Positions 75-25,110 of a stretch of 25,110 nucleotides of DNA are shown in pieces (within the stretch, counting starts at the first letter, position 1; every line of letters starts with the position of its first letter). The translations under genes were made by a program, and so were the position numbers. Origin of the DNA: Propionibacteriaceae bacterium. GTDB taxonomy: Bacteria; Actinomycetota; Actinomycetes; Propionibacteriales; Propionibacteriaceae. A model generated the notes under the pieces. It ran no database searches, was not told the origin of the DNA, and saw only the letters and a list, made by a program, of their open reading frames with translations. Location of the stretch: NCBI GenBank assembly GCA_031285505.1, contig JAITVZ010000065.1:1-25110 (forward strand). The letters are read 5' to 3'.

Positions 75-2057
75 ATGAATAATCCCATCAAGCGCCGCCT
101 TGGCTTGGCAATCGCTGGAGCCCTGGCACTCGGCAGCGTTGCCGCCAGCACTCCAGCTTCAGCCGATGAAGTCAACCTGATTCCCGACGCCGGGTTACGG
201 CAGTGTATTGTCGACGCACTGCACGACATGGGGCGAGGTTCCTCACCCGGACACCCGGACTACGCCTCCGAGGCCGACTCGATCTCGCAAGAGGATCTGG
301 ACCAGCTGGTTTGGAATAACGCTGCTAATGGAGCCATTTTTCTCAATTGCGGCCTGGCCGACAACCGAAGCTATGGCATCCAGGCGTTGTCCGGTCTCGA
401 GAATCTTCCAGTGGTCGATGTCGCCACTCTCTTCTTCGGTGGAAACCAGATCAGCGACCTCAGCCCACTGGCAGGGCTGACCAACCTGTCGTACCTTGAC
501 GCATCCGACAACCAGATCAGCGACCTCACACCCTTGGCCGGCGTGACTAAGCTGGCGTACTTAACTGTGGACAACAACCAGATCAGCGACCTCAGCCCAC
601 TGGCTGGGCTGCCCGCTTTGAATCGCCTTTCTGCATCCGATAACCAGATTAGCGATGTGACACCGCTGGCACAGTTGCAGTTGGGCAGCTTGCACTTGGC
701 CAACAACCAGATCAGCGACATCTCACCTCTGGCCAGTATCATCAATTCTGGCGACTATTTTGGCCCTGACACCGAGTATCTCACTGAGTGGAGTCTGGCG
801 GGCAACCACATCACTGACGCATCGGTGATCGACTGGGCGATCCTGAAGGAAGCCTGGGTCAGTGAGCCAAGCGAATATCAAGTGGAATCCGGCATTCGGG
901 CTGTTACGCGACAGACCAGCACCGCCAGCGGCGTGGCCGGCACGACCGTTCCCTTACCAGCCGTCACCACCGCCAAGGGCAGCCCCAACCCGATCACCTG
1001 GACCGTCAAATCCGGTGACGCCAGCATCGACGCCGCTGCCGGGAAGGTCACGTACAACTCCGCTGGACCGGTGATGCTGACCTGGTCGGACAGCTTGGCC
1101 GTGACCAAGGAATGCGCGCCCGGTGACGCGGGCTACTCAAGCACCCCGCCGCACTACATCTGCCTGAGCACCGGCCAACCACCGACCGGCACCGTCGATG
1201 TCTCCTTCTTCTCCGGCCAAGTCTCCGTCAATGTCACTGAGGCCGACGAAGAGCCGCCAACTCCGGATGCCCCTTCGACCGACACCACCAAAGACGACAT
1301 CATCGCCAGCTCAACGGGCGGGGCCGCCCGCCTGGCCGACGGTGACGACTCCTACGATGTCATCACCACCATCCGGTCGGCCGACGGCACCCCCCTGACT
1401 GGCTACGCCGACCGCTTGACCGCCACCGCCGCCAATGAGGTCAACCTTGGTGTCATCACCGACAACGGCGACGGCACCTACACCATCCAGGTGTCTTCCG
1501 ACACCCCAGGAAACTATGAAGTGACCATCACACTCGAGGATGAAAACGGCCAAGGCGTCATCATCGACAGCATCCCAGTCAACTTCATCGGCGCTGACAT
1601 CGATCAGCCCACCCGCCGCGTCAGCGACGAGCAAGCCGCCGACGGCCTGGGCTTCCTGCCTGGCGAACAGGTCAAGGTGACAGTTCACTCCGACCCGATC
1701 GAGCTGGGCACCCTGGCCGCCGATGCCAACGGCAGTGTGCCAGTCAGCTTCACCATTCCGGAAGGCTTCGACATCGGCCGCCACACCGTCGACTTCGTCG
1801 GCGAGACCTCCGGCGCCGTCAAGGTGGCCTTCGACGTCATCGACCCGTCGGCCATCACTGACCCGACCAACTCGGCTGACCCAACCACCGGCGGCGGTGT
1901 CGCCACCACGCCGACCGCACCAGGTGCTAAGGGTGACACCGGCGGTCAGGCTGGCGGCAGCCAGACTGACATCCTCCGGCTGGCCCTGATCGCCATGGCG
2001 CTGGGAGTCATTGCGACGGGCATTGTCACCCTGCGCCGGCGCAGCGACAACAGCTAA
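75..2057 (+). CDS. Secreted surface protein with N-terminal signal peptide and internalin-like 22-aa leucine-rich repeats (NQISDLSPLAGL...), followed by Ig-like beta-sandwich region. It ends in a KGDTGG motif, a hydrophobic segment and an RRRSDNS tail.
   Basis: AAGGAAGGGAA RBS before ATG at 75. The signal peptide reads MNNPIKRRLGLAIAGALALGSVAASTPASA. There are five or more tandem 22-aa LRR units. The C-terminal TM plus basic tail is visible in the translation. Confidence 0.8.
   Translation: MNNPIKRRLGLAIAGALALGSVAASTPASADEVNLIPDAGLRQCIVDALHDMGRGSSPGHPDYASEADSISQEDLDQLVWNNAANGAIFLNCGLADNRSYGIQALSGLENLPVVDVATLFFGGNQISDLSPLAGLTNLSYLDASDNQISDLTPLAGVTKLAYLTVDNNQISDLSPLAGLPALNRLSASDNQISDVTPLAQLQLGSLHLANNQISDISPLASIINSGDYFGPDTEYLTEWSLAGNHITDASVIDWAILKEAWVSEPSEYQVESGIRAVTRQTSTASGVAGTTVPLPAVTTAKGSPNPITWTVKSGDASIDAAAGKVTYNSAGPVMLTWSDSLAVTKECAPGDAGYSSTPPHYICLSTGQPPTGTVDVSFFSGQVSVNVTEADEEPPTPDAPSTDTTKDDIIASSTGGAARLADGDDSYDVITTIRSADGTPLTGYADRLTATAANEVNLGVITDNGDGTYTIQVSSDTPGNYEVTITLEDENGQGVIIDSIPVNFIGADIDQPTRRVSDEQAADGLGFLPGEQVKVTVHSDPIELGTLAADANGSVPVSFTIPEGFDIGRHTVDFVGETSGAVKVAFDVIDPSAITDPTNSADPTTGGGVATTPTAPGAKGDTGGQAGGSQTDILRLALIAMALGVIATGIVTLRRRSDNS
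444..760 (+). repeat. Tandem ~66-bp coding repeats (LRR units). The 29-mer AACCAGATCAGCGACCTCAGCCCACTGGC recurs exactly at 444 and 576.
   Basis: Direct inspection of the DNA and of the repeated NQISD(L/V/I)(S/T)PLA peptide units. Confidence 0.7.
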
Positions 2058-4109: not shown

Positions 4110-4889
4110 ATGACTAATCCGACCAAGATCACCCGCCGACTGATCGCCAGCGGACTGGCTGTCTTTTGCATGGCCGCGGCGCTGACCCCAACCGCCCAGG
4201 CCGACGACACTCAACCCTTGACTGTCACACCAACCGGTTGGGTGGCCACTGGCTCCCAGTTCACGGTCTCCGGCGCCGACTGCGCCGCCAAGAACAACGG
4301 CTCCGACGAGGTCGTCATCACCGCCAGTTATGGCAGCGGCTCCGACTCTTGGGTGGTCAAGCCGGCCGCCGACGGCAGTTGGTCGACCGATCGGATCGCC
4401 GCCTACTGGGGCAACGGGCAGATCAGCGCCACCTGCGTGATGTACGACGAGTCAACCCCAAGCACCCAGGCCGCCAAACTGACCGAACCAGCAGCCGCTG
4501 GCATAGCCGCGGCGGCGGCATCGACCCGCCGCACCTTCGACTATGTCGCCCAGCCTTACGCCTTCACCGGCTTCGCTGCCAAGGGTGAGGTGACCGCCGG
4601 GGCGACAGTCACCATCAGCGGTGGCGGTTATGCGCCTGGTGAGACGGTCAGCTTCACCATCGGAAACGGCTTCTTCGCCAGCCTGGTGGCCGACGCCCAA
4701 GGCAACATCAAGGGCCAGATCACCATTCCGGCTGACGCCACTGTCGCCGGCGCGGCGGTCACCGCCCAAGGCCAAAGCAGCCGCCGAGCCGTCAGCGACG
4801 CCGTCGTGGCGGTCGCCGCCCCGGTATATAAGGCCGAAGTCGGCACCCCCACCTATGTCATGCCGGCCCTCGGCACTGACGTCATCTGA
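4110..4889 (+). CDS. Secreted Ala/Gly-rich hypothetical protein with signal peptide. Its C-terminal Ig-like segment resembles one in the LRR protein.
   Basis: Signal peptide MTNPTKITRRLIASGLAVFCMAAALTPTAQA. AGGAAGG RBS. GFAAKGEVTAGATVTISGGGYAPGETVSFTIGNG parallels GFLPGEQVKVTVHS...SFTIPEG of the 75..2057 protein. Confidence 0.6.
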   Translation: MTNPTKITRRLIASGLAVFCMAAALTPTAQADDTQPLTVTPTGWVATGSQFTVSGADCAAKNNGSDEVVITASYGSGSDSWVVKPAADGSWSTDRIAAYWGNGQISATCVMYDESTPSTQAAKLTEPAAAGIAAAAASTRRTFDYVAQPYAFTGFAAKGEVTAGATVTISGGGYAPGETVSFTIGNGFFASLVADAQGNIKGQITIPADATVAGAAVTAQGQSSRRAVSDAVVAVAAPVYKAEVGTPTYVMPALGTDVI

Positions 4890-5244: not shown

Positions 5245-6012
5245 ATGAATCGACACGACCCAGCGGGGCACCCGCGATTGAACGGGCGACGACTGGTGGG
5301 CCTGTTGGCCGCTCTGGCGGTCGTGGCCGTGGCGGTGGCCATCGTCTTGACGGTCGGCTCTCGCTGGTTTGGTGGTGCGGGTGAGCCCGCCACCGGCAGT
5401 CAGGCCAGCCCGGCCGTCTCTGACAGTTCACCAGCTTCAACCTCGGCACTATTGCCGCCCATTGCCAAAGCCGATCCGATTCGGGTGACGATCGCCGATA
5501 TCAATGTTGACGCTCCGGTTGAGCTCTACACCGTCGCCATGGCCCAGGGGGCCAACAACCCCTTGACCGGCGAGCCATGCTTCAGCGATGACCGCATCAG
5601 TTGCGTCAACCCACCGGGCTTCGATCGGGCTTACTGGCTGAAGGCCGGTGAGGGCGGCATCCCCTTCGGCGATCAGGCGGGCCAAAACGCTGGTGGCACG
5701 GTCTACCTGGTAGGCCACGCCGCCGCCAACCAGGAAGCCTTGTTCAACAATCTCTATCAACTGACCCCTGGGGCGACGATCAAGGTCGGCACCGCCAATG
5801 GCCAAGTCGCTTATCAGGTGCAAGAGGTGGTCATCCTCGACAAATCCGACTGGTCATCCTCGGCCTATGCCAACGATCAAGTGCCCGGGCGGCTGGTCAT
5901 CGGCACCTGCTATCACGGCGATGATGCTGTCATCGGCCAATCGGGATCGTCGGCCCAGAACGTCCTGGTGATCGCCCAGACCGAAGTCAGCAACCTGGTC
6001 ATCGGCGGGTGA
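5245..6012 (+). CDS. Sortase-like transpeptidase-fold protein (class E/F-like). It has an N-terminal TM anchor and His (YLVGHAA) and Cys (LVIGTCY) motifs, but no Arg after the Cys.
   Basis: AGGGAGGA RBS before ATG at 5245 (ORF track start 5170 is probably too long). Sortase-like IADINVDAPV beta-strand motif, GTVYLVGH and LVIGTC. TGA stop immediately followed by ATG of the next gene. Confidence 0.5.
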   Translation: MNRHDPAGHPRLNGRRLVGLLAALAVVAVAVAIVLTVGSRWFGGAGEPATGSQASPAVSDSSPASTSALLPPIAKADPIRVTIADINVDAPVELYTVAMAQGANNPLTGEPCFSDDRISCVNPPGFDRAYWLKAGEGGIPFGDQAGQNAGGTVYLVGHAAANQEALFNNLYQLTPGATIKVGTANGQVAYQVQEVVILDKSDWSSSAYANDQVPGRLVIGTCYHGDDAVIGQSGSSAQNVLVIAQTEVSNLVIGG

Positions 6013-9015: not shown

Positions 9016-9024
9016 ATTAGTAAT

Positions 9025-9819: not shown

Positions 9820-9840
9820 CAATGTTAATTGGCGGTTGTC

Positions 9841-10101: not shown

Positions 10102-10107
10102 TGTGAA

Positions 10108-10148
10108 TAGGCGGGTTGGCGCCACACAAGCGGGCGCCAACCCGCCTA
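10108..10148 (+). terminator. Very stable hairpin (16-bp stem TAGGCGGGTTGGCGCC / GGCGCCAACCCGCCTA, 9-nt loop) immediately after the precursor-like ORF. Likely an attenuator or partial terminator.
   Basis: Perfect inverted repeat starting 7 nt after the stop codon. Confidence 0.55.
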
Positions 10149-10173
10149 CCGTCTGCTCATTGTTGGGAGTGGC

Positions 10174-11583: not shown

Positions 11584-11585
11584 TC

Positions 11586-12209
11586 GTGATTACCATCAAC
11601 GACTTGTCATTTGCATATGGCAGACATGATGTTCTGAAAAACATGACGGTTGAATTACCCGATCAGGGAGTCGTTAGTCTGACTGGCCCGAATGGGGTGG
11701 GAAAGACCACCCTATTAAAGGCGCTTGGTGGGCTTTTCGACTGCAGTATTGATATTTGCCCGCCACGAACTTCCGGAAGTTGGCGATATTTTGACGCCGA
11801 TTTCTTATCACTGGACCACCTCACCGTCAGCGAATTTGTTGGTCTAATGTTGGCAGCTGACTTGAGTGGCTCAGTCGCCGCGACAAAAATCGCCACTCTC
11901 ATAGATGATCTTAAGGACCAAACCGTTGGAGCATTATCACTGGGGCAAAGCCAGCGTCTTGTCTTGGTATTAGCCTTGAATAGTCAGTTCGACGTGCTCC
12001 TGCTGGATGAGCCATTCAACGCCCTTGATACCATCAACATCGGCATCATCGAAGAGCTCATCAGCGAGGCAGGCCGTGATCATTTAGTAATCTTTGCCAC
12101 CCACCGAGACGACGTCATGGCTGGTCGGTTGTCAGCCACCGTCAGAATGATTGATAGTGAGACAGCCGAGACGACCTATTTTGATTTAACCAAGTTTGAA
12201 ATCAAGTGA
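11586..12209 (+). CDS. ABC transporter ATP-binding protein (single NBD).
   Basis: Walker A GPNGVGKTT, signature-like LSLGQSQR, Walker B VLLLDEP. GTG start with GGGGAG RBS, 2 bp after the upstream stop. Confidence 0.8.
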   Translation: MITINDLSFAYGRHDVLKNMTVELPDQGVVSLTGPNGVGKTTLLKALGGLFDCSIDICPPRTSGSWRYFDADFLSLDHLTVSEFVGLMLAADLSGSVAATKIATLIDDLKDQTVGALSLGQSQRLVLVLALNSQFDVLLLDEPFNALDTINIGIIEELISEAGRDHLVIFATHRDDVMAGRLSATVRMIDSETAETTYFDLTKFEIK

Positions 12210-12221
12210 TGGGGATCGATC

Positions 12222-12839
12222 ATGAGTTCTGAATTAGCGTCTTCCAACAGAGACGAATCCTCGCGGAATGTTAGCGAGAATTGGCCCCAAATCAGACCTG
12301 CCGACAGGGGGCGATTAATCGAGCGACCCAAACTGCTGAACTGGCTAATTGTGGTGATGGTCGTTGGCTGGTATGCGGCTGCCATGCAAATGGTGGCCAA
12401 GCCGATATTGGATGAGGGGGTGGTCAGAGCCGGTGGCAATAGCGGCTTCGCCTCTGATCATGCCTATCGCCTGTTCCTTTGGGGGGCTTTGCTGATCATG
12501 TCACTGGCGGCGCCATGGTTGATGGCCCTGGTCTTGCGATTGGTCATCCGGGTCGTAGCCAACCAGAGGACCAGCTTCTTCCGTAGCATCAGTGCCGTCT
12601 GTTTCGGCCTAGTGCCATTCATTGTTGTCGTCGTCATCATCCAGGTGGTCACTGGCGCTAGCCCTTACCTGCTGCCTGGATGGCGCTGGATCAATCTGGC
12701 AGTGCTGACCGTGTTGGGAACCCTGATCAGCGTCAGATACCTGCGCCATGAGATTGGCTCGATCGGTCGACAGGTAGCCCTCTTCGCCATTCTCTTCAGC
12801 CTGAATGTGTTATTCATGGTGCCAACCATCGGCTTGTAG
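12222..12839 (+). CDS. Membrane protein (about 4 TM helices), a possible accessory, immunity or permease component. Its 3' end lies in a 334-bp direct repeat.
   Basis: Hydrophobic segments LNWLIVVMVVGWYAAAM, LFLWGALLIMSLAAPWLMALVL, VCFGLVPFIVVVVIIQVV, INLAVLTVLGTLISV. Confidence 0.55.
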   Translation: MSSELASSNRDESSRNVSENWPQIRPADRGRLIERPKLLNWLIVVMVVGWYAAAMQMVAKPILDEGVVRAGGNSGFASDHAYRLFLWGALLIMSLAAPWLMALVLRLVIRVVANQRTSFFRSISAVCFGLVPFIVVVVIIQVVTGASPYLLPGWRWINLAVLTVLGTLISVRYLRHEIGSIGRQVALFAILFSLNVLFMVPTIGL

Positions 12840-12983
12840 AAGTCGGCTCAGCGCAGAGGCCTCTATAAGTTCCGGAAGAACAGTTCCACTCGGTCGGTCG
12901 TCCAGGTGGCGACACCGGTGCCGAAGAAGTCGTGATCCTCGGTCCAGATGGGACAATCGATGGCCAAGGCAGCTGCCAGGACG
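12650..12983. repeat. Direct repeat copy A (334 bp), spanning the 3' end of the 12222..12839 gene, the intergenic spacer and the 3' end of vapC.
   Basis: Aligns without indels to 13587-13920, with about a dozen substitutions. Confidence 0.85.
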
Positions 12984-13291
12984 TGCCAATCATCGGGGTC
13001 ACGTCGGCCGATGCGGGCTAGAGCCTCGTCCCGGAAAGGCGAATAATGCTCCTGCGGCAAAACGGTGATCAACGTCTGCGTCTCGTCCAAGAGGGCTAAG
13101 GCCGCTTCGATTTCGGGCAAACCCCGCCGCCGATAGATGCCTTTGAGTCCACGCTCCGCCTCAGCGACGCAAGCCACCGGCACAACAAAGCCGACTATTC
13201 CCGACTGATTGGAAATCACATTCCTGACTCGGCGTCCAAGCACGGACCGAATCAGGATGTTGGCATCCAAGATGAGGGAGCGCCTAGGCAT
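12863..13291 (-). CDS. vapC: PIN-domain toxin (VapC type). Start refined to MPRRSLILDANILI.
   Basis: PIN N-terminal acidic motif. ATG at 13291 overlaps the antitoxin stop by 8 bp. Confidence 0.75.
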   Translation of the reverse strand: MPRRSLILDANILIRSVLGRRVRNVISNQSGIVGFVVPVACVAEAERGLKGIYRRRGLPEIEAALALLDETQTLITVLPQEHYSPFRDEALARIGRRDPDDWHVLAAALAIDCPIWTEDHDFFGTGVATWTTDRVELFFRNL

Positions 13292-13534
13292 TGCCGGACT
13301 GACGCGATGTTTCGTATTCGCCAATCAACTCATCGGGGTCGACTCCTTGGCGGGACAGCATCGCATCCACCCGTTCGGCCAGCTCATCGAAACGCTGCCG
13401 ATCAAACGGCCGCCGGCGCTCTTGGGGAATGTAGGTGCCAATGACTTGGCCATGTCTGGTCACATCAACCGGAGTGGACGAATCCAAGTAGGTCGACAAC
13501 TCTTCGCGGAACTGTCGGACGCCGACGGTAGGCA
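13284..13534 (-). CDS. Phd/YefM-type antitoxin. Start refined to MPTVGVRQFREELSTYLD.
   Basis: AGGAGA RBS 6 nt upstream of ATG at 13534. The ORF track's GTG start at 13589 is unlikely. Confidence 0.7.
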
Positions 13535-13942: not shown

Positions 13943-16072
13943 CTAGACCTGGAACCACCCCAGCCACCAGGGCGGCGAATCAATGACTTTCCCACCGGTT
14001 TGGACGGCCTTGGGCGGATTGGCCACTGCTGGAGAATTGGGATCAACCCCGCCCGGCGGGGTCGGCTCAGGATCGACCGAGCAATCCAGCCATTCGGCCG
14101 ATCCCGGCAGAATCTTCGGCGCATCGGTCACCGCGTAGGCGTCGAGCATCGTCTCAATCAGGCTGGAGCCTTCGCCGGCGACGGTCAACCGCAAGCTGAC
14201 CGACGCCCCCACCGGGGCGACGACCTCACCTAGATAGGTCGCCTGCGCGCTGTCTTGGACGATCGAACCTGGGCCCGACGAAGCCGGCGATCCACCCGCC
14301 GACCCAGCTGAACCCGCGGCATCAACCTTCATCGTCACCGTCTGCCAACTGACTCCCCCATCGGTTGACTGCTCCAACCGCAGCTCATCAAGCGGCAGGT
14401 CAGCCGCGCCAGCGGCCATGCCGGTGTGAACAATGATTGGCTGCGCCGTGGCGCCTCGATTGGCAGCATCGATGCCTGGTAGCTCGATATTCGCCGAGCG
14501 CAGCGGTTCGATCCGACCCTCTGCCGAGCCTTGACTGGCCGAATGCCAGCGCCAGCTGGCGGCGATGCTGATCGGCGGGCCCCATTGCGACAAATCGACC
14601 AGGCTGGCCTGACGCAACTCATACTCCTGACCTTGATCTGGCAGTCCAGGAACCACAAGCGGGCTGACACCCGGCGGAACAGCGGCCCTGATCAGCGACT
14701 CGCCACTGCTGAGGTTGACCAGTTCGAGACTGGTCTGTGCCGCACCCTGCAGGCCGGTGGCAGTGAATGACGGCTCGGAGTTGCCCTGCCCATCGCTAAG
14801 CACGTTTGGATAGACAACCATCGTGTCGGCCACACGGCTGGTTTCGAAGCCTGCGGGCTGGTTCAGGGTCAACACCGGCCCACCGATGTCGAGCTGGCTG
14901 ATCTGCCCCAGGGGGAAGACTGTGGCCGGTGTGACGAAGATGGCCGGATCGCTCGGTATCGACGGACCAGTCGGATCAGCAGGATCCTCGGAGTCAATTG
15001 GCGCCGTCGGGTCCCCATCCCCTGAGGTCAGCGGGTAGTCGCTTTCAATCGTCCATGACAGCTGCGGCGACGCCCACAAGCGATACTGGCTGGGCAGAGG
15101 CTGTTCGACCGGGAAGGAGAACAGCGACACCGACCCCGCCGCGGCTGCGTCGGGCCAGGCAACGGTGAACACCTCCTGGACAGTGTCCAAATCACCGCCA
15201 TGGCGATGGCTGACATCGACCGCCGCCAGGTCTCCGGTTTCAGCCGTCAAGACGAAATCAGCCTGTGACAAGCCCGAACGACTGGCCAAAGCATAGACAT
15301 CATCCGGCACGGTCTTCCCATCCAACGAGCAATCGGCCAAGCGATCACCCGGGGGCGTCGCCAAGACGCCGAGCAGATCAAGCTGCCAAGAGCCCAAATT
15401 GTTATCCGCTGTCGGCAGGATCGCCAGAGCATCATCGAGTCGTCGATCAAAGGAGACGACATTGTTGAAATTAGACAGCCAATCACCAGCCGAATTAGAT
15501 AGCCCCAGCCGCGCCGACACGGAGCCATGTCCGGGCAAATCCGGGAGCAGCTCGACCGTCTTGGCAAGGCTGCCATCGAGTTTGAGCGTCGTTGGCTCGG
15601 ACAATGTGAACGGACCAGCCGGCAAAACGGTCACGACATAGCCGCCATCATCGGTCATGACCTGGTCGGTCACCACCAGCGCATAATCACCCTCCACCAG
15701 CGGCATCGACCAGTGGCCGTCGACCATCGGCGTGAAGGTGCTTTGACCGCTATTGATATCGACCAGCGCCACATAGGCCGGCTGTGCCGGATCAGCCCCG
15801 GCGGGTTGACCCAGCAGATTGGTCGCCTCGATGGTCAGATCGTGAGTCACCGGGGCGTTGTTCCAGCCGATTGGTGTGCGAATGAGCTGCCCGAAGGTCG
15901 TGGTGGCGTTGACGTAGCCCCCGACATAGCCGATATCGAAGAGGTTCGGGTGGATTATCACCGTGACGCTGGCTTGACCACCGGCTGGCACAGTGACTGT
16001 GTTGGCCGACAACTCAATCGCTCCGTCGGGTGCTGGGGTGGCGGGCAGCACAAAAACCGACCCAGCCGACAC
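13943..16072 (-). CDS. C-terminal ~709-aa portion of a large subtilase, or a separate beta-sandwich domain protein. No signal peptide. In frame with the upstream S8 ORF and separated from it only by one TGA.
   Basis: Frame arithmetic: the stop at 16124-16126 and the GTG at 16072-16070 are 54 nt apart. The 17 intervening codons have no stop. AQ-rich linker on both sides. Confidence 0.5.
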   Translation of the reverse strand: MSAGSVFVLPATPAPDGAIELSANTVTVPAGGQASVTVIIHPNLFDIGYVGGYVNATTTFGQLIRTPIGWNNAPVTHDLTIEATNLLGQPAGADPAQPAYVALVDINSGQSTFTPMVDGHWSMPLVEGDYALVVTDQVMTDDGGYVVTVLPAGPFTLSEPTTLKLDGSLAKTVELLPDLPGHGSVSARLGLSNSAGDWLSNFNNVVSFDRRLDDALAILPTADNNLGSWQLDLLGVLATPPGDRLADCSLDGKTVPDDVYALASRSGLSQADFVLTAETGDLAAVDVSHRHGGDLDTVQEVFTVAWPDAAAAGSVSLFSFPVEQPLPSQYRLWASPQLSWTIESDYPLTSGDGDPTAPIDSEDPADPTGPSIPSDPAIFVTPATVFPLGQISQLDIGGPVLTLNQPAGFETSRVADTMVVYPNVLSDGQGNSEPSFTATGLQGAAQTSLELVNLSSGESLIRAAVPPGVSPLVVPGLPDQGQEYELRQASLVDLSQWGPPISIAASWRWHSASQGSAEGRIEPLRSANIELPGIDAANRGATAQPIIVHTGMAAGAADLPLDELRLEQSTDGGVSWQTVTMKVDAAGSAGSAGGSPASSGPGSIVQDSAQATYLGEVVAPVGASVSLRLTVAGEGSSLIETMLDAYAVTDAPKILPGSAEWLDCSVDPEPTPPGGVDPNSPAVANPPKAVQTGGKVIDSPPWWLGWFQV

Positions 16073-16123
16073 CTGGGCCTGCTCTTGGGCAGGCTCCTGG
16101 GTTGGGTCTAGAGCTGCGGCCGA

Positions 16124-18238
16124 TCACTGGGCGGCCAGCCCATGCCCTGGCAGCCCCGCCTGGGCCTGGTCTTGAGCCAAAGCCTGCCCAGGGTTAGCCG
16201 TGGGGGCTGTGTCAACGGTGGCCAAACCGCGGCTGGGCACACTGACCAAGGAAGCCGCCAAGTCAAGCATCTGATCCTGATCGCTGAGGTTCTTCCAGGT
16301 CAGGGTGCGCTCAGCCGAAGTGGCGGCTGGCGGGTCGAAAGCGCCGAAATCCAGAGACGAGCTGTCGGGGATGAGATTGGCCGCCAAAGAGGCGGGGATG
16401 TTCAGCAGCCCTGCCCCCTGCTGGAAGACAGCTGAGCCATCCGGCAGCGGACTGGCCCCAGCCATCAAGCGTGATTCAAGACCATCACGATCCAGGGTCG
16501 GGTCCGATTCCAATAGCAGCGCGGCCGCCCCGGCCACCAAGGGGGCCGCCATCGAGGTGCCGTAATAGTTGTCGGAAACATAGCCATCACTGCCCGCGCC
16601 GGCGCCGACCAGACCTGTTGTCAAGGGCATGCCGCTCTCATCGAGCAGGGGGAAGCCGGTCTCATCGACCGGCGCCAAGGCGGCCCCCGGCGCCATGATC
16701 TGCGGGCTGACCGCGCCATCACCGCGCCGCGGCCCAGTCGATGACCACCAACCAAGATTGCCGAATTGGTCGGTCGCCCCAACGGCCAACGCCTCGGAGG
16801 CCGTCGCCGGAGCGTTGATGGCTTGATCGGACATGTCATTGCCGGTTGCCACCACAAACAAACATCCGTATTCAGCAGTCAAAGCGTCAAGCGTCCGAGA
16901 GACCAGCAAGCTGCCGTCGTCGTAATATCCCGGAAAACCCAGACTCATGTTGACGATATCCGCCCCATGACTGGCGGCCCACTCCATGCCCTCGATCACC
17001 TGGGAATCGGTGCCTGAGCCATCGGCGCCGACCACCTTGGCACTGAGCAACTGGGCCTTGGGGGCCACCCCTTGATAGAGGCCAGCCGAGGCGGCGCCAG
17101 TGCCGGCGATCTCCGAAGCGACAAAGGTGCCGTGGCCGTTGTGATCCAAGCCATCACCATCGACTGAGAAATCGACTGTGTCGATCACCTGACCAGCTAA
17201 ATCAGGATGCCGGGTATCGATGCCAGTATCGACCACTGCCACCGTCACACCCTCACCCAGCAACCCGGCGTCATGGGCCTGGTCAGCGCCGATCAATGAC
17301 ATCCAGGCTGGCGTGTCATCGCTGACCTCGGTCAACGCCGTGATTGTCGACAGGTCGAACTGGTGTTGCCGATCCAACCAGATCTGGCTGACAGCCGCAT
17401 TGGCCGCCGAGCGCTGCGACAAGCCCTCAGCGGTCGGTTGGGCCAGGGCTTCGATCAATCCCCAACTGGGAGCCGGACCAGCTTCAACGCTGGTGTCTGC
17501 CCAACCGACCGTGGCGGGCAAAGCCGTCAGCCTGGTCGTCACCGACAGGCCGGCGGCATCCATATCGAATGCCGCTCCACGACTGATGGAGGTCAATGGG
17601 TTGGTCTCGACGATCAGCGGCAGATCACCATTCGGCCCGAGGTCATAGCTGGCCAGAAGGCTGACGTTGAACAGTGCCTGATCCAGACCGTGGCCGATCA
17701 AGGCGACGACGTCTGAGGGGAAAACGAAGATACCATCGGCCGTTTGGGAAATGCTCAGATGGGCTGACCTGCCATCCGGGCGTGGCGCCAACACCGTCGA
17801 TCGCACCGCGCCATTGGCATCAATGAGCACCTGGTCACCGGTGATCAGACGCACTGATGAACCAGCGGCGGTCGAGTTGCTGGCCGATTCAGTGTCATTG
17901 CCCGCCCCGCTGCCATTGGCCAAGCCTGTCTCAACCGTCGGCACCAGCGGCGTCGAATCGGCAGCGGTGACCGGTGCGGCTACGGCCGAAACCCCGCCAA
18001 CGGCAGCCCCAATCAGACTGACCACGGTGGCCACCGCCAACAAGGCGACCCGCACCCGCGGTTGAGCCAGCTGCCGTCGCCGCCCCGGACTGACCATCGT
18101 GCCAGCTGCCCCGGTCGCCCCGGCCGCCCTTGCTCTCCCGCTTGTCCCGCGTACCGCTCTCGGGCCAGACTCCCCTCTCCGGCTACTCCTCGCGCTCACG
18201 CCGCTTGTCGCCATCGGTTCCCCTGTCATCATCGACAC
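16124..18238 (-). CDS. Subtilisin-like serine protease (S8 family), N-terminal part with signal peptide. Probable true start is ATG at 18097.
   Basis: Catalytic triad motifs VAVVDTGID (Asp), HGTFVASEIAG (His), GTSMAAPLVAGAAALL (Ser). Signal-peptide-like VRVALLAVATVVSLIGAAVGGVSAVAA. Confidence 0.8.
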   Translation of the reverse strand: MSMMTGEPMATSGVSARSSRRGESGPRAVRGTSGRARAAGATGAAGTMVSPGRRRQLAQPRVRVALLAVATVVSLIGAAVGGVSAVAAPVTAADSTPLVPTVETGLANGSGAGNDTESASNSTAAGSSVRLITGDQVLIDANGAVRSTVLAPRPDGRSAHLSISQTADGIFVFPSDVVALIGHGLDQALFNVSLLASYDLGPNGDLPLIVETNPLTSISRGAAFDMDAAGLSVTTRLTALPATVGWADTSVEAGPAPSWGLIEALAQPTAEGLSQRSAANAAVSQIWLDRQHQFDLSTITALTEVSDDTPAWMSLIGADQAHDAGLLGEGVTVAVVDTGIDTRHPDLAGQVIDTVDFSVDGDGLDHNGHGTFVASEIAGTGAASAGLYQGVAPKAQLLSAKVVGADGSGTDSQVIEGMEWAASHGADIVNMSLGFPGYYDDGSLLVSRTLDALTAEYGCLFVVATGNDMSDQAINAPATASEALAVGATDQFGNLGWWSSTGPRRGDGAVSPQIMAPGAALAPVDETGFPLLDESGMPLTTGLVGAGAGSDGYVSDNYYGTSMAAPLVAGAAALLLESDPTLDRDGLESRLMAGASPLPDGSAVFQQGAGLLNIPASLAANLIPDSSSLDFGAFDPPAATSAERTLTWKNLSDQDQMLDLAASLVSVPSRGLATVDTAPTANPGQALAQDQAQAGLPGHGLAAQ

Positions 18239-18430: not shown

Positions 18431-18688
18431 ATGGCTGCAACTATCACCGTGCGGAACCTGAGTGAGGACACCCAACGTGTCTTGCGGCACCGAGCTATCG
18501 ACCACAATCAGTCATTCGAAGCTGAAGTCAGGCAAATTCTCACTGAAGCCGCACAAGCGAGTTCATCAACGGCAACACCAGCGGCAACCATCTTCGCGGC
18601 TGCAGACCAGTTCCGGAAAGCAACCTCTGGTCTCGGCTTCACCCTGCCACCCCGTCTTGACGAAACACAAAGAGACGTAAATCTATGA
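18431..18688 (+). CDS. vapB: Ribbon-helix-helix antitoxin (VapB/FitA-like).
   Basis: MAATITVRNLSEDTQRVLRHRAIDHNQSFEAEVRQIL is a classic RHH antitoxin N-terminus. GAAGGAGGGG RBS. ATGA overlap with the downstream PIN gene. Confidence 0.75.
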   Translation: MAATITVRNLSEDTQRVLRHRAIDHNQSFEAEVRQILTEAAQASSSTATPAATIFAAADQFRKATSGLGFTLPPRLDETQRDVNL

Positions 18689-19146
18689 TTATCCTCGACA
18701 CGAACATCGTTTCGGCGCTCTTTGTCTCAACGCACCAGGACCACCGGCAATTGAGAACATGGTGTGACGCTTGCCTCGATCAAGAGTTTCGCATCTGCGC
18801 GCCGACTCTCGCTGAGATTGAATATGGGATCGCCATCCTGCCGGCAGGCGCTCGCAAGGAACAACTGATCCACGAGGCACACCTTTTCCTTTCCAAGACA
18901 GCACAATGGATCCTGCCCTTCGGAGCGCGTGACGCCAGTGAATACGCGATCATCACGGCCCAAAGACGACCCATTAGCATCTTCGATGCTCAAATCGCTG
19001 CCATCACTCGCACGGCCGGAGCCACCTTAGCCACCCGGAACATCAAAGACTTTGAGAACTGTGGCATCACTCTTGTCAATCCCTACCAGATCACCTTCTC
19101 TGCACAGGCGGATCATGGTGAACCAGTCGACCGGAACAACCAATAG
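18685..19146 (+). CDS. vapC: PIN-domain toxin (VapC/FitB-like).
   Basis: MIILDTNIVSALF... PIN signature. 4-bp overlap with the antitoxin. Confidence 0.75.
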   Translation: MIILDTNIVSALFVSTHQDHRQLRTWCDACLDQEFRICAPTLAEIEYGIAILPAGARKEQLIHEAHLFLSKTAQWILPFGARDASEYAIITAQRRPISIFDAQIAAITRTAGATLATRNIKDFENCGITLVNPYQITFSAQADHGEPVDRNNQ

Positions 19147-19553: not shown

Positions 19554-20690
19554 TCAACCCAAGAACTCGACGCTGGCTTGATTGCCATCCAGGGTCACGG
19601 TCGCGCCAATCGGCCAGATGGCATGACGGTCACCGTGGCCGAAGTCATCGCAATAGACCACCGGAATGTGATGGTCGGCCCCGAAACGGGCCAAGCGCTC
19701 CAGCAGTTCATGCGGCGCCGAATCGGCGAAGTGCCCAAAGATCAAGCCCTGAACCGCTTCGATGAAGGGCTGCTGCTCCAGAAATGACAACCAAGTGCCA
19801 ACTTGTCCGGGCGAACTGAAGAACTCATGGTCCTCCAGGGCCAGGATCAGCGGCTGGCCGGGATCTCGGCCCCAACCGGAGTCTTCCCACAAAGGGTGAT
19901 GGAGCATGGCTGGCAGCAATCCGGCGTAGCAGGCCAACAATCGGCCACTGGCCGCACCAGCACTCAAACTGCGCCAGGGGCTGTCCACCAGGAAGGGGCC
20001 GCCTGCCGGGCCAGCGACGAAATGCTGCTGGAACTGCCGCCAGTTGTAGTGACTCAGCGCCGTGAAGGCCCCGAGGCCCAATCCGTAGTAAGTGACCAAT
20101 CCGGTTTGGGCGGCGATGGCCATCAGCAGCGAACTGGCGTCGGAAAAACTCGATATGAGTTTGGGCGATCGGGCAATGGCGCCATAATCGATCAGTGGCA
20201 ACAATTCGACCGCCCCATCGCCGCCGCCGAAGAGGATCAGTTTGACCTGATCGTCAGCCAGCAGGGCGTTGAAATCAGCCGCTCGATCAGCCGCCGATGG
20301 CAGAACTGGCTCGCCAGATGACGGAAGCCGATCAACGCCCTGAGCCTGAATGGGTTCCTCGGGTGAAAGGGTCTGGCCCGTTGCTGGGGCCAAGGACGGG
20401 TTGCCACAGGCCCGGTGACCCAAAGCTACGGGCTGGTCCAAATCTGACTGGCCCTGGGCCCCAAGTTGACCCAATGAATCACGGCTGACCCCGAGCCGCT
20501 CGCTGGAGACCACGGTCGACGAGCGACCGAGGATTTCACCTGATAGCGGTCCGAGCTTGACCTTGTAGCCCAGGCCCTGCAGGACGAAGCGGTAGCGGTC
20601 GAGCTTGACCGGATCCAACGGCTGGCTGGGGAAGGCCAGGCCGATGTGATCGCCGGGTTGGAGCATCGGCGCATAGATCGGTGTCGGCAT
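19554..20690 (-). CDS. S66 peptidase (LD-carboxypeptidase LdcA / microcin-C7 immunity MccF-like) with a ~75-aa low-complexity insertion.
   Basis: N-terminus MLQPGDHIGLAFPSQP, nucleophile motif SSFSDASSLL, GGDGAVELLPLIDY. Insertion ILGRSSTVVSSERLGVSRDS...EPVLPS between conserved blocks. Confidence 0.6.
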   Translation of the reverse strand: MPTPIYAPMLQPGDHIGLAFPSQPLDPVKLDRYRFVLQGLGYKVKLGPLSGEILGRSSTVVSSERLGVSRDSLGQLGAQGQSDLDQPVALGHRACGNPSLAPATGQTLSPEEPIQAQGVDRLPSSGEPVLPSAADRAADFNALLADDQVKLILFGGGDGAVELLPLIDYGAIARSPKLISSFSDASSLLMAIAAQTGLVTYYGLGLGAFTALSHYNWRQFQQHFVAGPAGGPFLVDSPWRSLSAGAASGRLLACYAGLLPAMLHHPLWEDSGWGRDPGQPLILALEDHEFFSSPGQVGTWLSFLEQQPFIEAVQGLIFGHFADSAPHELLERLARFGADHHIPVVYCDDFGHGDRHAIWPIGATVTLDGNQASVEFLG

Positions 20691-20878: not shown

Positions 20879-23800
20879 TCAGAGGCTGCGCTCCTTGACT
20901 TGGCGGATTTGGCTGCGGGTGATGCCGAAGACCGCCGCGCCGCCAGCCAAGGCGGTCAGCAGGGCGGTCAGGCCGAGTGCCTGATGGTTGCCTTGGTCCA
21001 GCACTGCCCCGGTCTGAACCTTGGGGCCAGCGGTCTTGACGGTGCTCGACTTGACCGGCGTACTGGCAACGGAACTGGACTTGCCTGATCCGCTTGCCGC
21101 TGAGCTTGAACTGGCAGCGCTGGTGTTCGTCGGCTGAGCCGTCGGCGAGGCACTCTGGCTGGGGCCGGGCGTCGGGTTGGCAGTGTTCGAGCCGGAAGGC
21201 GTCGCACTCGGCGAACCAGACGGAATCGAGCTGGGCGATCCGCTCGGTGTCCCAGACGGCGAAGCGCTCGGTGATCCAGACGGCGAAGCGCTCGGTGAGC
21301 CCGACTCAGTGGGGCTAGCTGTGCTGCTGGGCGAGCCCGACGGGGTCGAGCTGGGCGTGCTCGACGGTGAGCCACTGGGCGACTCGCTCGGCGAGGCGTT
21401 GGCCGTGGCCACTGCCTGGTTGAGGGCTGCCGTCAAAGCCGTCAGGTCATCGGCTGTGCTGTCCGGGTCGCTGATCGCTTGTTGAAGACTGGTGATGGCT
21501 GCCGCGACCGCCGCCACTGACTTGACCGATTCCGCCTGGCTGATGGCGTTGTTGGCGGCTGTCACCGCTGCCGCTCGGGCGGCGGCATCGCTGGACAATT
21601 CGGCTTCGGAGGTCGCGACCGCTGCGCGTAACGCCTCGGTGGCGCTGGTCAATTGAGCCAGGGTGGCATCCTCTTTGGCCAGGAGCCCAGTCAAAGCCGA
21701 CACCGCCTGCGTCACCTCCGGTTCGCCCGCCGCCGGCGAGGCTTTAGCCTGATCGATCATCGCCTGGGCGGCGCCGACAACCTTGGACCGGACCAGCTGA
21801 CCAAGTGCCGTGGTGGCGGCGGCGATGTCGGCGGTGGCCGATGTCGGATCATTCATCAAGGCGGTCAGCTGATCAATGGCGCTGGTCACCGCCGGATCGT
21901 CGATAGCGGCCTTGGCATCGTCAATGGCGACCTGACCGGCGTTCTTGGCCGCGGCTCGGTCGGCGGCGGCGGCTTGGGCCGATTCGACCGCTGCGGTGAT
22001 CACCTGGGCGGCGCTCTGGATGTTGGCAGTGGTGGCGTTGGCCGAATCAGCGCCAGCCGAGGCCACCAGATCGTCAAAGGCCTTGACCGCAGCCAGCACG
22101 CTCGAATCAGCGCCGACAGCGGAGGCTTTGGCGGCGGTGGCAACCGCCTGCCCATCATTGACGGCTGCCGTGCGGGCCGTCTTGGCGGCGGATGAAGCAT
22201 CTGTCAAGGCGCTGGTGGCCGCCTGGATGGCGGCGGTGGTGGCAGTGGCGTCAGCCACTAGGGTCGACAGGTTGCTGGCGGCCGAGGCGACCGCCGACTC
22301 GTGGCTGACCGGCGACAGATCAGCCAAAGCGGCATTGGCGGCGGCGATGGCCTCCTGTCGGGCGGCATCAGGATCGGTCGGCGTCGTCTGCCCGGCGCCG
22401 TCGACGGCCAGGATCAGTTGATCCATCGCCAACAGAATGTCAGCAGTCAGCGCATTCGCGGCATCGGTCTTCGACCGATCGATGGTGTCCGTCAGCTGGC
22501 TGAGGGCCGCCACCACACTCGGATCGCTGGCGACGCTCGACCCAGCGGCAGCGGACTTGGCTCTATTGGCGGCGGTGATGGCGTCGTTGCGGTCTTGTTT
22601 GGCGTTGGCCGCCGCCGCCAACAAGGCGTTGCTGGCGGTTTCAATCCGAGTGGAGGTGGCGTCGGCGGCCTCGATCTGGGCTTGCAATTGCTGTTTCAAG
22701 GCCAGCACCGATGGCTGATTGGACACCGGCGCTGTGTCGGCGATGGCCACCTGAGCCTGCTTCGCAGCCTCACCGGCGGTCTCAACCGCCAAAGCTTGGG
22801 CTGATTTCAGAGCAGCAACCCGAAAATCCAGGTCCTTGCTGAGAGCATCGGCCGCGTCGGCAGCGGCGGTGGCCCTGGCCAAACGTAGGACATTGACTGC
22901 CACCTGCACCGCGATGTCGCCGTGCCCATCAGCGGTGGCCGAGTTGTTGATGGCATCGGCCGCGGCTTGATCGGCGACGACGCGCTCAGCTTTGGCCTGA
23001 CTGATGGCAGTCGTCAAAGCGGTGGTGGCGGCGCTGATCTGCTCGCTGGTCGAGTCTTGGGCTTGGAGCAAGACATTGACATCGTCGATCGCCTTGCGAA
23101 CAGTCGGTTCATTGGTGACCGGCCGGGTCTCCAGAACGGCGTCGTTGGCGGCCCGGATGGCCGCCACCTTGACGTTGTCTGTCGCCTTAGAGATGAAGTT
23201 GATGGTGTTGGTCGCCTCAATGATCTGCTGGGTCAGATCGCTGGCCGAATCAGCCGCTGCCCGATCGAGCATGTCCTTCAAATCCTGGACCTGCTTCTGC
23301 AGATCGGTGTTGGCCAGGTCCTCCTCAAGCTGCGCGGCTGAACTGGTGGCGATTTGAGCCGCATAGACGGCCGACTGACGATTGACCTCTTCGGAGGCCA
23401 CTTCGCCCTTGAGCACATCTGTGGCGGCCGTGATCGCCGCCGCTGACGATTTGCTGTCAGCCAGAACCGACTGTAAATTGCTGATGGCCGGAACGACACC
23501 CGGCTCATGAGACACCGGTGACGTCCTAGTCAAGGCGGCATTGGCCCCACTGATGGCCTGCTCACGGGCCGCCGCCTGTTGGGCCAAGGCGTCAGTCAGA
23601 GCCTGGGTGGCGGCAGCGATGCTGGCAGTCAGATCGGTCGGCGAGTCGACAGCGGCGGCGGCTTGGATCAGTTGAAGATTCTTGATGGTGTCGATCACTG
23701 ACGGGTACCCCGCCGCGGTGCTGGCTTGGGCCGAAGCGATCAAATCCGTGGCGGCCGTGTTGGCTGCGTCCCGGGCCTGTTTGGCCGTCAGGACCGCATC

Positions 23801-24214
23801 GTCCAGGCTACTGGTGGCGCTTTGCAGTTGCGCGACGGTGGCAGAGGCATCACTTTGAACGGCATGGAGCCCGGCAATGGCGGTGGCGACCGCGGATTCA
23901 TGAGAGACCGGGCGGGCGTTGGTCAGCGCCGATTGGGCGGAATCACGAGCACTGGCCAGTTCCACGTTGATGGCCATGATGGCGATGTCCAGAGGATAGG
24001 CCTTAACCGTGTCGACGCCCTGGTTGGCATTCGAGCTCAAGCCCGTGGCCGGTCCAGATGGATTCGCATCGGCCGGATCAGCCACAGCCACCGCCCCCAA
24101 CAAACCACCACTGGCGAACAGCAACAGGCTGGTCAAGGCGGCAGTGGCCCTGACCCCCCGTTTCCTGGCTGTCCAGCTTGGCATTGTCGCCTCGGCTCGC
24201 TGCTGATCGTGCAT
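20879..24214 (-). CDS. Giant Ala-rich repeat surface protein (~1110 aa from ATG 24214). It has a signal peptide, many ~90-100-aa helical Ala-rich repeats (PVSHE... units), a Ser/Pro-rich stalk, and a C-terminal KVQTGA motif plus TM plus basic tail.
   Basis: GAGGAG RBS 6 nt before ATG at 24214. Signal-peptide-like ATAALTSLLLFASGGLLGAVAVADPADA. Repeats visible in translation. C-terminus ...KVQTGAVLDQGNHQALGLTALLTALAGGAAVFGITRSQIRQVKERSL. Confidence 0.7.
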   Translation of the reverse strand: MHDQQRAEATMPSWTARKRGVRATAALTSLLLFASGGLLGAVAVADPADANPSGPATGLSSNANQGVDTVKAYPLDIAIMAINVELASARDSAQSALTNARPVSHESAVATAIAGLHAVQSDASATVAQLQSATSSLDDAVLTAKQARDAANTAATDLIASAQASTAAGYPSVIDTIKNLQLIQAAAAVDSPTDLTASIAAATQALTDALAQQAAAREQAISGANAALTRTSPVSHEPGVVPAISNLQSVLADSKSSAAAITAATDVLKGEVASEEVNRQSAVYAAQIATSSAAQLEEDLANTDLQKQVQDLKDMLDRAAADSASDLTQQIIEATNTINFISKATDNVKVAAIRAANDAVLETRPVTNEPTVRKAIDDVNVLLQAQDSTSEQISAATTALTTAISQAKAERVVADQAAADAINNSATADGHGDIAVQVAVNVLRLARATAAADAADALSKDLDFRVAALKSAQALAVETAGEAAKQAQVAIADTAPVSNQPSVLALKQQLQAQIEAADATSTRIETASNALLAAAANAKQDRNDAITAANRAKSAAAGSSVASDPSVVAALSQLTDTIDRSKTDAANALTADILLAMDQLILAVDGAGQTTPTDPDAARQEAIAAANAALADLSPVSHESAVASAASNLSTLVADATATTAAIQAATSALTDASSAAKTARTAAVNDGQAVATAAKASAVGADSSVLAAVKAFDDLVASAGADSANATTANIQSAAQVITAAVESAQAAAADRAAAKNAGQVAIDDAKAAIDDPAVTSAIDQLTALMNDPTSATADIAAATTALGQLVRSKVVGAAQAMIDQAKASPAAGEPEVTQAVSALTGLLAKEDATLAQLTSATEALRAAVATSEAELSSDAAARAAAVTAANNAISQAESVKSVAAVAAAITSLQQAISDPDSTADDLTALTAALNQAVATANASPSESPSGSPSSTPSSTPSGSPSSTASPTESGSPSASPSGSPSASPSGTPSGSPSSIPSGSPSATPSGSNTANPTPGPSQSASPTAQPTNTSAASSSSAASGSGKSSSVASTPVKSSTVKTAGPKVQTGAVLDQGNHQALGLTALLTALAGGAAVFGITRSQIRQVKERSL
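21115..21385 (-). repeat. Degenerate 12-18-bp tandem repeats encoding the (S-P-S-G/S-P-S-A) stalk of the giant protein.
   Basis: Repeated GGCGAAGCGCTCGGTGA(T/G)CC(A/C)GAC-type units on the plus strand. Translation SPSGSPSSTPSSTPSGSPS... Confidence 0.6.
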
Positions 24215-24418: not shown

Positions 24419-25110
24419 TCAGTGGCGTTTAGCCTTCTTGGCGCCTCGGTGAGTCGCGCCGAAGATCACCGCTCCACCAGCCAGAGCCGTGGCTATGGCC
24501 GTCAACCCCAGGGTGCGTTGCCCCTGGTCATCCGACCAAAGCAGGCCACCAGACTTGACCTTGACCGGGCTGGGTTGGACCGCCGGCGGATTGGCCGACA
24601 CCGCCGTGACCGTCACCGGCTGGCTGGCGGTGGCCACCGCCGCATTCAACTCGGCCGTCAGTTTGACGATCTCGGCCGTGGTCGACTTCGGGTCGGCGAT
24701 CACCTTCTGGAGATTGGCGATGGCCGTCGCCACCGCTGGCACCGTCTTGACCGGGTCCGCCTTGCTGATGGCCTCCTGGGCCGCCTTGATGGCATTGGCC
24801 CGATCCAATTCGGCCTGCTTGACGGCGTCTTGCAGCTCCTTGGTGGCCGCGACCACCTCCGAGACGCTGGTGCCATTGTCAGCCACCACGCCGGTCAGAT
24901 CACCGATCTCATGGACCACGTTGCTATCGGTTGCCACAGTCGAATCCTTGGCCTGGTCGAGCATGCCGTTGGCCAGATCGATGACCTTGGCGCGCACCAG
25001 CTTATCCAGCTCGGCGGTGGCGCCGATGATGTCAGCCGTCTTCTTGGTCGGGTCGTTCATCACCTTGGTCAGGTTGTCGACCGCTGCAGTGACAGCCGCA
25101 TCGTCGATGA
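24419..25110 (-). CDS. Paralog of the giant Ala-rich surface protein (C-terminal part only; the 5' end runs off the window). Same repeat type and the same C-terminal KVKSGG...TM...basic-tail module.
   Basis: MNDPTKKTADIIGATAELDKLVRAKV closely parallels MNDPTSATADIAAATTALGQLVRSKV in the neighbour. C-terminus KVKSGGLLWSDDQGQRTLGLTAIATALAGGAVIFGATHRGAKKAKRH. Confidence 0.65.
   Translation of the reverse strand, partial: IDDAAVTAAVDNLTKVMNDPTKKTADIIGATAELDKLVRAKVIDLANGMLDQAKDSTVATDSNVVHEIGDLTGVVADNGTSVSEVVAATKELQDAVKQAELDRANAIKAAQEAISKADPVKTVPAVATAIANLQKVIADPKSTTAEIVKLTAELNAAVATASQPVTVTAVSANPPAVQPSPVKVKSGGLLWSDDQGQRTLGLTAIATALAGGAVIFGATHRGAKKAKRH

Follow-up and report, generated by a model that had tools for sequence, protein, structure and literature searches.

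How might large surface proteins be fixed to the cell envelope at a locus without a single LPXTG signal? This question is raised by a stretch of 25,110 bases from a Propionibacteriaceae bacterium (contig JAITVZ010000065.1; hereafter the window, with a G+C content of ∼60% overall), in which an initial annotation had noticed similar C-terminal ends on several predicted surface proteins. Gram-positive surface proteins are usually predicted by searches for LPXTG-like motifs, and none of the tails described here matches the LPXTG models. Three complete C-terminal modules were found in the window, each consisting of a motif of the form [KAS]-[VAG]-x-[TS]-G-[GA], a spacer of 9–16 residues, a hydrophobic helix and a cationic end, while a fourth copy, located on a split subtilase gene, comprised the motif only. 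On balance, we lean towards the view that this bacterial lineage has, in this module, its own variant of the sortase-type sorting signal, with V-x-T/S-G-G/A taking the place of LPXTG. The four copies are located as follows:

20882–21022, stop codon at 20879–20881, minus strand: C-terminal module of the Ala-rich (FIVAR-like) adhesin encoded by an open reading frame of 1157 residues, KVQTGA...KERSL
24422–24562, 24419..24562 including the stop codon, minus strand: C-terminal module of the tandem Ala-rich adhesin, KVKSGG...AKRH
1929–2054, to 2057 including the stop codon, plus strand: C-terminal module of the leucine-rich repeat (LRR) / Big_1 surface protein, KGDTGG...SDNS
13946–14008, from 13943 including the stop codon, minus strand: subtilase remnant with AVQTGG and 15 further residues, without helix and without basic tail

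In the tail of the 1157-residue open reading frame, KVQTGA is followed by the spacer VLDQGNHQ, the hydrophobic stretch ALGLTALLTALAGGAAVFGIT, the segment RSQIRQVKERSL and the stop codon. The tandem adhesin, the gene of which runs off the end of the window, shows the order KVKSGG, spacer LLWSDDQGQRT, hydrophobic stretch LGLTAIATALAGGAVIFGAT, HRGAKKAKRH and stop, and the LRR protein the order KGDTGG, spacer QAGGSQTDILR, hydrophobic stretch LALIAMALGVIATGIVTL, RRRSDNS and stop. A six-frame hydropathy scan gave these three tails mean Kyte-Doolittle values of 1.95–2.36 over 17 residues, followed by three to five Arg or Lys residues. Among the six-frame open reading frames, ordinary membrane proteins aside, they belonged to the only plausible genes whose products end in a hydrophobic stretch with two or more basic residues. 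All four C-termini quoted in the initial annotation were present in the sequence as written. The interval it assigned to the first tail, 20879–21010, begins at the G of T-G-A and so omits K-V-Q-T at 21011–21022, and its description of the two Ala-rich tails as near-identical did not hold, since the tails of the two tandem adhesins were identical at 20 of 49 positions (41%).

The carriers of these modules in the window are mutually unrelated by type, comprising an LRR protein with Big_1/Invasin_D3 domains, two Ala-rich repeat proteins and an S8 subtilase. Their genes are:

75..2057, plus strand: tail-bearing secreted protein with LRR and immunoglobulin-like (Ig-like; Big_1/Invasin_D3) domains and a signal peptide
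20879..24184, minus strand: Ala-rich repeat adhesin, counted from the Met preceding the signal peptide; the open reading frame extends to 24352
13943..18238, minus strand: gene of the S8 subtilase, the C-terminal part of which is fn3_5-like

By inspection, the carriers bear N-terminal signal peptides: the LRR protein starts with MNNPIKRRLGLAIAGALALGSVAASTPASADE, the adhesin has MPSWTARKRGVRATAALTSLLLFASGGLLGAVAVADPADA and the subtilase has RRRQLAQPRVRVALLAVATVVSLIGAAVGGVSAVAAPV. The sortase-type layout of motif, helix and cationic end that had originally been described was confirmed for the complete tails, and their carriers have N-terminal signal peptides.

The main support for a putative sorting signal, and the strongest argument in its favor, came from the comparison of the Ala-rich adhesin with its homologues. 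When an Ala-rich fragment was run with phmmer against 1.84 billion representatives, 23 proteins matched, and the 13 complete homologues were compared. The Ala-rich proteins form a family of giant repeat adhesins, one member of which (P0024) has a faint FIVAR match, and giant FIVAR-type LPXTG adhesins are among the homologues of the repeat adhesin in the window. A canonical [LVS]PxT[GA] anchor was present in 10 of the 13 complete homologues, 4–10 residues ahead of a helix and a basic tail, reading LPNTG, LPATG, LPKTG, LPPTG, LPYTG, LPQTG (twice), SPPTG, VPATG or LPDTA. The members of the present lineage (3 of the 13) have KVQTGA, KVKSGG or SVKTGG, 12–16 residues ahead of the helix. In P0035 we observed VPFSG, which would appear to represent an intermediate form. 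As a positive control, the homologue tails P0018, P0030 and P0022 were scored against the LPXTG models and reached 31–44 bits on PF00746 and 27–41 bits on TIGR01167; six lineage tails gave no match to either model at E ≤ 10. Likewise, L[PAS]x[TS][GA] followed by a helix was found neither in the window nor in 17 lineage loci, in full agreement with the earlier remark that LPXTG and LAXTG are missing. The lineage motif occupies the position that is held by LPXTG in relatives, and LPXTG is absent from the readable lineage DNA. What the module shares with the LPXTG/LAXTG signal are secreted carriers with signal peptides, a motif ending in T/S-G, a helix, a cationic extreme C-terminus and the same position in homologous FIVAR-type adhesins. 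It differs in the absence of Leu, and of Pro or Ala, from positions 1 and 2, in the Gly or Ala that follows the G, and in a spacer of 9–16 residues as compared to 4–10 in the homologues.

Motif-bearing tails were not confined to the window. Seven are known in all, namely the three complete tails and the remnant of the window and three more from related contigs. A Big_1 protein on a 152-kb contig (L001) of a metagenome-assembled genome (MAG) ends with SAATGG-TAQASHGWQ-helix-RRPVSTRSR, a partial protein on contig L016 (3381–3686, minus strand) with AVHSGG-EVTGTMPGD-helix-RRRLGLGRQH, and P0024, from the same Joint Genome Institute (JGI) sample as the TD116_bin43 contig, with SVKTGG-QVLASGSDSVSGLTP-helix-RRPVRKVAGK. 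The seven tails span at least four unrelated families (FIVAR-like adhesins, LRR/Ig protein, Big_1 protein and subtilase), and share the consensus [KAS]-[V>A,G]-x-[T/S]-G-[G/A], after which x-[VL]-[LI] often comes. The combination of V-x-[TS]-G-[GA] with a hydrophobic pair recurred in proteins that are not homologous: it reads AVQTGGKVI in the subtilase, AVHSGGEVT in L016, and VQTGAVL, VKSGGLL and VKTGGQVL in the adhesins. A profile search with the tail, which had been proposed in the initial annotation, was unrewarding: a four-tail profile matched nothing at E ≤ 10 among 5.8 billion proteins, which indicates that tails of such shortness and diversity do not lend themselves to this kind of search.

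A similar type of signal has already been catalogued as the 'GVDTG sorting domain' (NCBIfam NF058571.1), a domain for which we found no paper, and the present tails are not members of it by the curated threshold. Its x-V-x-T-G signature resembles KVQTG, AVQTG and KGDTG, and the LRR tail (13.2 bits) and the L001 Big_1 tail (16.2 bits, E 0.0094) matched the model, apparently over motif, helix and tail. The tail of a protein on contig L028, to which we return below, scored 13.6 bits, and no match to NF058571 was obtained for the Ala-rich, L016, P0024 and subtilase tails. Upon replacement of TGG by AAA, the Big_1 score fell from 16.2 to 8.5 bits and the LRR match was abolished. When GVDTG was substituted in, the Big_1 tail, which was the best of the tails, rose to only 23 bits and the LRR tail to 14.7 bits. 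Models of class B signals (NPQTN, QVPTGV) gave no match at E ≤ 10, and the x-V-x-T-G likeness is one seen by eye only. The precedent of NVQTG that had been invoked for the tails proved weak, as this motif, proposed for Clostridioides difficile CbpA, was left uncut in vitro by the SrtB of the same species (PMC4155245). A better parallel is the [E/Q]VPTG pilin signal, which is accepted by the class B sortase Spy0129 of Streptococcus pyogenes (PMC3019223). The S. pyogenes [E/Q]VPTG and VPPTG pilin signals resemble the lineage tails in the Val at position 2, the T-G at positions 4 and 5 and the lack of an initial Leu-Pro; unlike the lineage tails, they keep a Pro at position 3, and they belong to Firmicutes pilus systems.

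Conceivably, the tails are no more than plain, uncleaved membrane anchors, with T/S-G-G arising from linker composition and from the shared ancestry of the Ala-rich paralogues. We consider this the main rival reading, possible if rather unlikely, and it draws on a number of observations that weigh against a sorting signal. The motif is short, and the linkers in which it lies are rich in G, S, T and A; among the seven tails, three are mutually homologous and hence not independent, and the V at position 2 is replaced by G in the LRR tail and by A in the Big_1 tail. In shuffle tests, for which the position window was chosen post hoc, the chance of finding [TS]G[GA] in place was 0.03–0.36 per tail, and the product over four independent families amounted to ∼1.5e-3 for [TS]G[GA] and ∼4e-5 for [VAG]x[TS]G[GA]. 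An unbiased search for a shared pattern in five independent tails returned [ST][AG][AG] as the best pattern, with p = 0.12. In linkers of such a composition the motif is not established by statistics alone: while the three-part build of the tails is firm, the short motif does not reach significance on that basis. To the same side belong the facts that every match to the GVDTG model falls under its 29-bit cut-off, that the Ala-type tails remained without a match even when GVDTG was substituted in, that no LPXTG-type model matches the tails, and that the lineage spacer is unusually long, exceeding that of the LPXTG homologues. Furthermore, the sortase encoded in the window lacks the catalytic Arg (see below), and the readable lineage DNA extends over ∼150 kb, such that other sortase or LPXTG proteins may lie elsewhere. 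Finally, the best NCBIfam match of the window subtilase is mycosin, and mycosins are retained through a C-terminal helix that stays uncleaved. A plain anchor is, however, difficult to reconcile with the homologous adhesins, which have a functional-type LPXTG anchor at exactly that position; the swapping of an unrelated anchor into every lineage member would be less parsimonious than a drift of the motif. The recurrence of V-x-[TS]-G-[GA] with its hydrophobic pair in non-homologous proteins likewise argues against mere anchoring, as does the apparent share of TGG in the match to a curated model of a sorting domain. If the tail were not cleaved, it would simply be a membrane anchor of little interest.

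The subtilase copy of the motif requires separate consideration. The initial annotation had reported AVQTGG without a transmembrane segment, and both the motif and the missing helix were verified, and the gene proved to be split by an in-frame TGA at 16124–16126 (minus strand). As this is one gene broken by an in-frame stop codon, and the homologue P0016 is an unbroken, single protein of 1569 residues, the missing helix looks like the outcome of gene decay and not like a version of the signal that does without one. The interrupted gene probably represents a pseudogene or an error of assembly. A rescue of the tail by frameshift was considered and rejected, since the other frames after AVQTGG contain nothing hydrophobic beyond the brief stretch FAALVAGVVPGLGLRG and lack a convincing helix with a basic tail. 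An intact subtilase tail was not recovered either: a chimeric query, in which the C-terminal part of the subtilase was joined to the C-terminal half of the LRR protein, matched only itself and the distant subtilase P0016, the C-terminus of which has neither the motif nor a basic tail.

If the module does function as a variant sorting signal, the proline-less [KAS]-[V>A,G]-x-[T/S]-G-[G/A] would replace the LPXTG pentapeptide, with a longer than usual spacer (9–16 residues) ahead of the helix. The carriers would be exported through Sec via their N-terminal signal peptides, and the precursor would be held in the membrane by the C-terminal helix and the cationic end. A membrane-anchored cysteine transpeptidase would then cut after the T/S and transfer the protein to a peptidoglycan precursor. 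Cleavage, the cleavage site, the wall linkage and the enzyme are what we infer in this scheme. Were it true, adhesins, proteases and LRR proteins anchored by a proline-less signal would escape LPXTG-based searches, the known range of sortase recognition would be extended, and the motif could offer a new ligation motif for protein engineering.

Processing by a system other than a sortase, be it a GlyGly-CTERM/rhombosortase-like intramembrane protease or an exosortase/archaeosortase-type enzyme, is very improbable. The succession of Gly-Gly, helix and basic cluster is superficially like GlyGly-CTERM, and one weak MYXO-CTERM match (9.4 bits, E 1.4) was obtained, from the tail on contig L006 only. 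However, no window tail matched the GlyGly-CTERM, PEP-CTERM, PGF-CTERM or related models at E ≤ 10, the GG lies 9–16 residues from the helix and not at the helix edge, and the window contains no rhomboid, rhombosortase or exosortase gene. The exosortase-type option that had been raised at first was not upheld by these results. Moreover, rhombosortase and exosortase/archaeosortase systems are known from Gram-negative bacteria and archaea, whereas the present host is Gram-positive.

Which enzyme, then, might cut the tails? A candidate is encoded in the window, together with a partner gene and genes for LytR-CpsA-Psr (LCP) proteins:

5245..6012, plus strand: membrane-anchored sortase-fold protein, candidate sorting enzyme
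4110..4889, plus strand: secreted Ig-like partner protein, just upstream of the sortase gene, ending with MPALGTDVI (4860–4886) and without helix
6013..7005, plus strand: LCP glycopolymer transferase gene, starting directly after the sortase stop codon
2268..3302, plus strand: second LCP gene, immediately following that of the tail-bearing LRR protein

As noted initially, the window thus encodes an atypical sortase-fold protein, in which the His and Cys are kept and the catalytic Arg is absent. The protein passed the Pfam Sortase model with 41 bits (cut-off 26.6), and its AlphaFold model, with a predicted local distance difference test (pLDDT) score of 81, consists of an N-terminal membrane helix and a sortase barrel, for which the top Foldseek matches were class C, A, D and E sortases (E 1e-9 to 1e-6). 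Among the sortase classes, class F gave the highest scores, both for the window enzyme and for its relatives throughout; the corresponding model, NF033748, has a cut-off of 166 bits, and the window protein scored 40.2 bits and the relatives P0002, P0014 and L006 34–54 bits. The closest relatives were encoded by the Propionibacteriaceae MAGs TD116_bin43 and TD116_bin13 (∼61% protein identity), and a distant one by an Actinomycetales MAG. His158 in TVYLVGH (5698–5718) and Cys222 in LVIGTCYH (5893–5916) were both invariant in 13 sequences. Known sortases have an Arg 8–13 residues after the Cys (PMC11231552). In the present family no Arg after Cys222 is invariant, and the window protein is devoid of any Arg or Lys beyond the Cys, as are 5 of the 12 members checked, the window's included. 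N239 and Q245 were invariant in the last strand, QNVLVIAQ (residues 238–246; 5956–5979), and Asn239 was kept even in the 30%-identical L006 homologue (SDNLVVYA). The position of the Arg was deduced from the alignment and the predicted strand and not from a superposition; the profile comparison with Staphylococcus aureus SrtA was uninformative past the His region, and the PDB profile alignments end at the Cys. Compared to class F sortases, such as SrtF of Cutibacterium acnes, the window enzyme has the same N-terminal membrane helix, the same fold and the His and Cys in the expected motifs, and it differs in a score far under 166 bits, the lack of a conserved Arg after the Cys and the invariant Asn in the last strand. 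A class F enzyme has been reported as the sole housekeeping sortase of C. acnes, which belongs to the same family (PMC11231552). The function of class F is poorly understood, and four class F enzymes in Actinoplanes were without phenotype (PMC13251363).

At no fewer than 15 loci, that is at least 15, the gene directly upstream of the sortase homologue specifies a secreted Ig-like protein of ∼240–400 residues, often overlapping the sortase start. The partner ends with MPx[LVN][GS]x[DG][VI]x (MPxLGxDVx) at the extreme C-terminus, without a membrane helix, and the loci concerned include L001 (8057–8875 and 9128–9832), L003 (152–928), L008–L021, L024 and L027. This Ig-like protein gives the impression of a dedicated partner or substrate, the sorting signal of which is truncated. 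In the most divergent locus, L028 (P0014, 40% identity), the partner (2–913, plus strand) ends with GGVPTAATDVLATPQQSPVMWLGAGLAVAGLAAAGGVVWRRLHAAA, representing a motif region, a helix and a basic tail; because this divergent partner has both helix and basic tail, the helix-less form is suggested to be derived. We also considered the tails and the partner motif as one and the same signal, which was rejected as a general rule, since a position-specific scoring matrix (PSSM) of the partner motif was not significant for five of six tails. The L016 tail alone clearly matched (GTMPGDALVVL, p 0.007), and P0024 did so more weakly and at a different position. The L016 tail holds both AVHSGG and TMPGD directly ahead of the helix, and the partner on the same contig ends with DTMPGLGLGIY.

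The pairing of sortase and LCP genes is kept in L001, L003, L011–L014, L024 and L028, with junctions that abut or overlap (window, 6010–6015; L001, 10762/10763; L024, 2988–2991; L028, 1613–1616), and partner, sortase and LCP together form a conserved unit. On the TD116_bin13 contig L003 (3961–11860) this unit adjoins parA, parB, gyrB and gyrA, a core-chromosome setting that is consistent with a housekeeping role. A partial secreted protein beside the sortase unit of L024 (3–950, minus strand), the C-terminus of which lies off the contig, has LEYPKNVTL, like the YPKN pilin motif. The arrangement of the unit is reminiscent of the GspA-LcpA-SrtA pathway of Actinomyces oris, where the gene for a small secreted protein likewise adjoins an LCP gene, with a functional tie to a sortase (PMC6381275). 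In the present lineage, partner, sortase and LCP genes follow one another in this order, abutting or overlapping, and the tail-bearing LRR gene also precedes an LCP gene. The lineage differs from A. oris in that the sortase gene lies inside the cluster and the partner usually lacks a helix; the likeness rests on gene arrangement.

The position of the tail-bearing genes counts among the points in favor of the variant sorting signal. On each of three independent contigs, namely the window, L001 and L016, they lie within 1.6–7 kb of the sortase-like gene. In L006, from an Actinomycetales MAG, the gene for a subtilase of 1134 residues (6498–9902, plus strand), which ends with ELLMLTGAALLVLATAGVLLAAARRRPTGGDHA, overlaps the start of the sortase homologue (9899–10546, plus strand), and its tail, ELLMLTGA-helix-RRRP, is class-A-like. 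Against this weigh the missing Arg and the fact that the conserved gene partner of the sortase bears a different motif, which does not match the tails except that of L016. Given that the conserved partner bears MPxLGxDVx, the link between tails and sortase that was first suggested is plausible at most. The Arg-less class-F-like sortase at 5245–6012 can be put forward only tentatively as the cutting enzyme, and a conventional sortase encoded outside the contig carries similar weight.

In the latter case, the tails would be cut by a conventional, Arg-bearing class E/F sortase elsewhere in the genome, and the local sortase would serve the MPxLGxDVx partner only, in a GspA/LcpA-like glycoprotein pathway with the LCP protein; this we regard as possible but doubtful. 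Such a division of labor would fit the conserved partner C-terminus at the loci described above, the often overlapping sortase start and the helix and basic tail of the divergent L028 partner, as well as the failure of the partner PSSM on the motif-bearing (class-A) tails, L016 excepted (p = 0.007). It also has a precedent in A. oris, where gspA immediately precedes lcpA and its product, GspA, undergoes glycosylation by LcpA before SrtA anchors it (PMC6381275). Yet no second sortase was seen in the ∼150 kb of readable lineage DNA, and C. acnes reportedly has one sortase only. The L006 sortase homologue, moreover, is translationally coupled to a subtilase with M-L-T-G-A, helix and RRR, and the L016 tail bears both AVHSGG and TMPGD.

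A more far-reaching version of the variant-signal reading is that the LPXTG system has been wholly replaced in this lineage, and that its sole sortase represents a new Arg-less His-Cys-Asn class with two proline-poor signals in a fixed unit with LCP, which we deem unlikely. One of these signals, V-x-T/S-G-G with helix and basic tail, would be borne by large adhesins and enzymes, and the other, the helix-less MPxLGxDVx end, by a GspA-like protein; the sortase would have co-evolved with both. As the neighboring sortase lacks the catalytic Arg, the locus would, if the variant signal is real, provide a natural test case for the co-evolution of signal and enzyme.

Several other features of the window deserve mention. 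Three PIN-domain genes and a DUF4160 gene, which probably represent toxin-antitoxin modules, are scattered among the surface-protein genes:

3360–3770, minus strand: PIN-domain gene
12863–13324, minus strand: PIN-domain gene
18685–19146, plus strand: PIN-domain gene
9025–9327, minus strand: DUF4160 gene

Between positions 9000 and 13000 the G+C content falls to 52–55%, as compared to ∼62% elsewhere. This stretch encodes a multi-pass membrane protein of 469 residues, an ATP-binding cassette (ABC) ATPase and a membrane protein of 205 residues without family match, and its membrane proteins have no counterpart in related loci. The ABC-type genes at 10174–12839 were considered as conserved neighbors of the sortase locus and rejected, the similarity being that of generic ATPases only. 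Directly downstream of the Ala-rich adhesin gene lies a gene for an S66 LD-carboxypeptidase homologue (19554–20690, minus strand), in which the two Pfam halves are split by a long insert.

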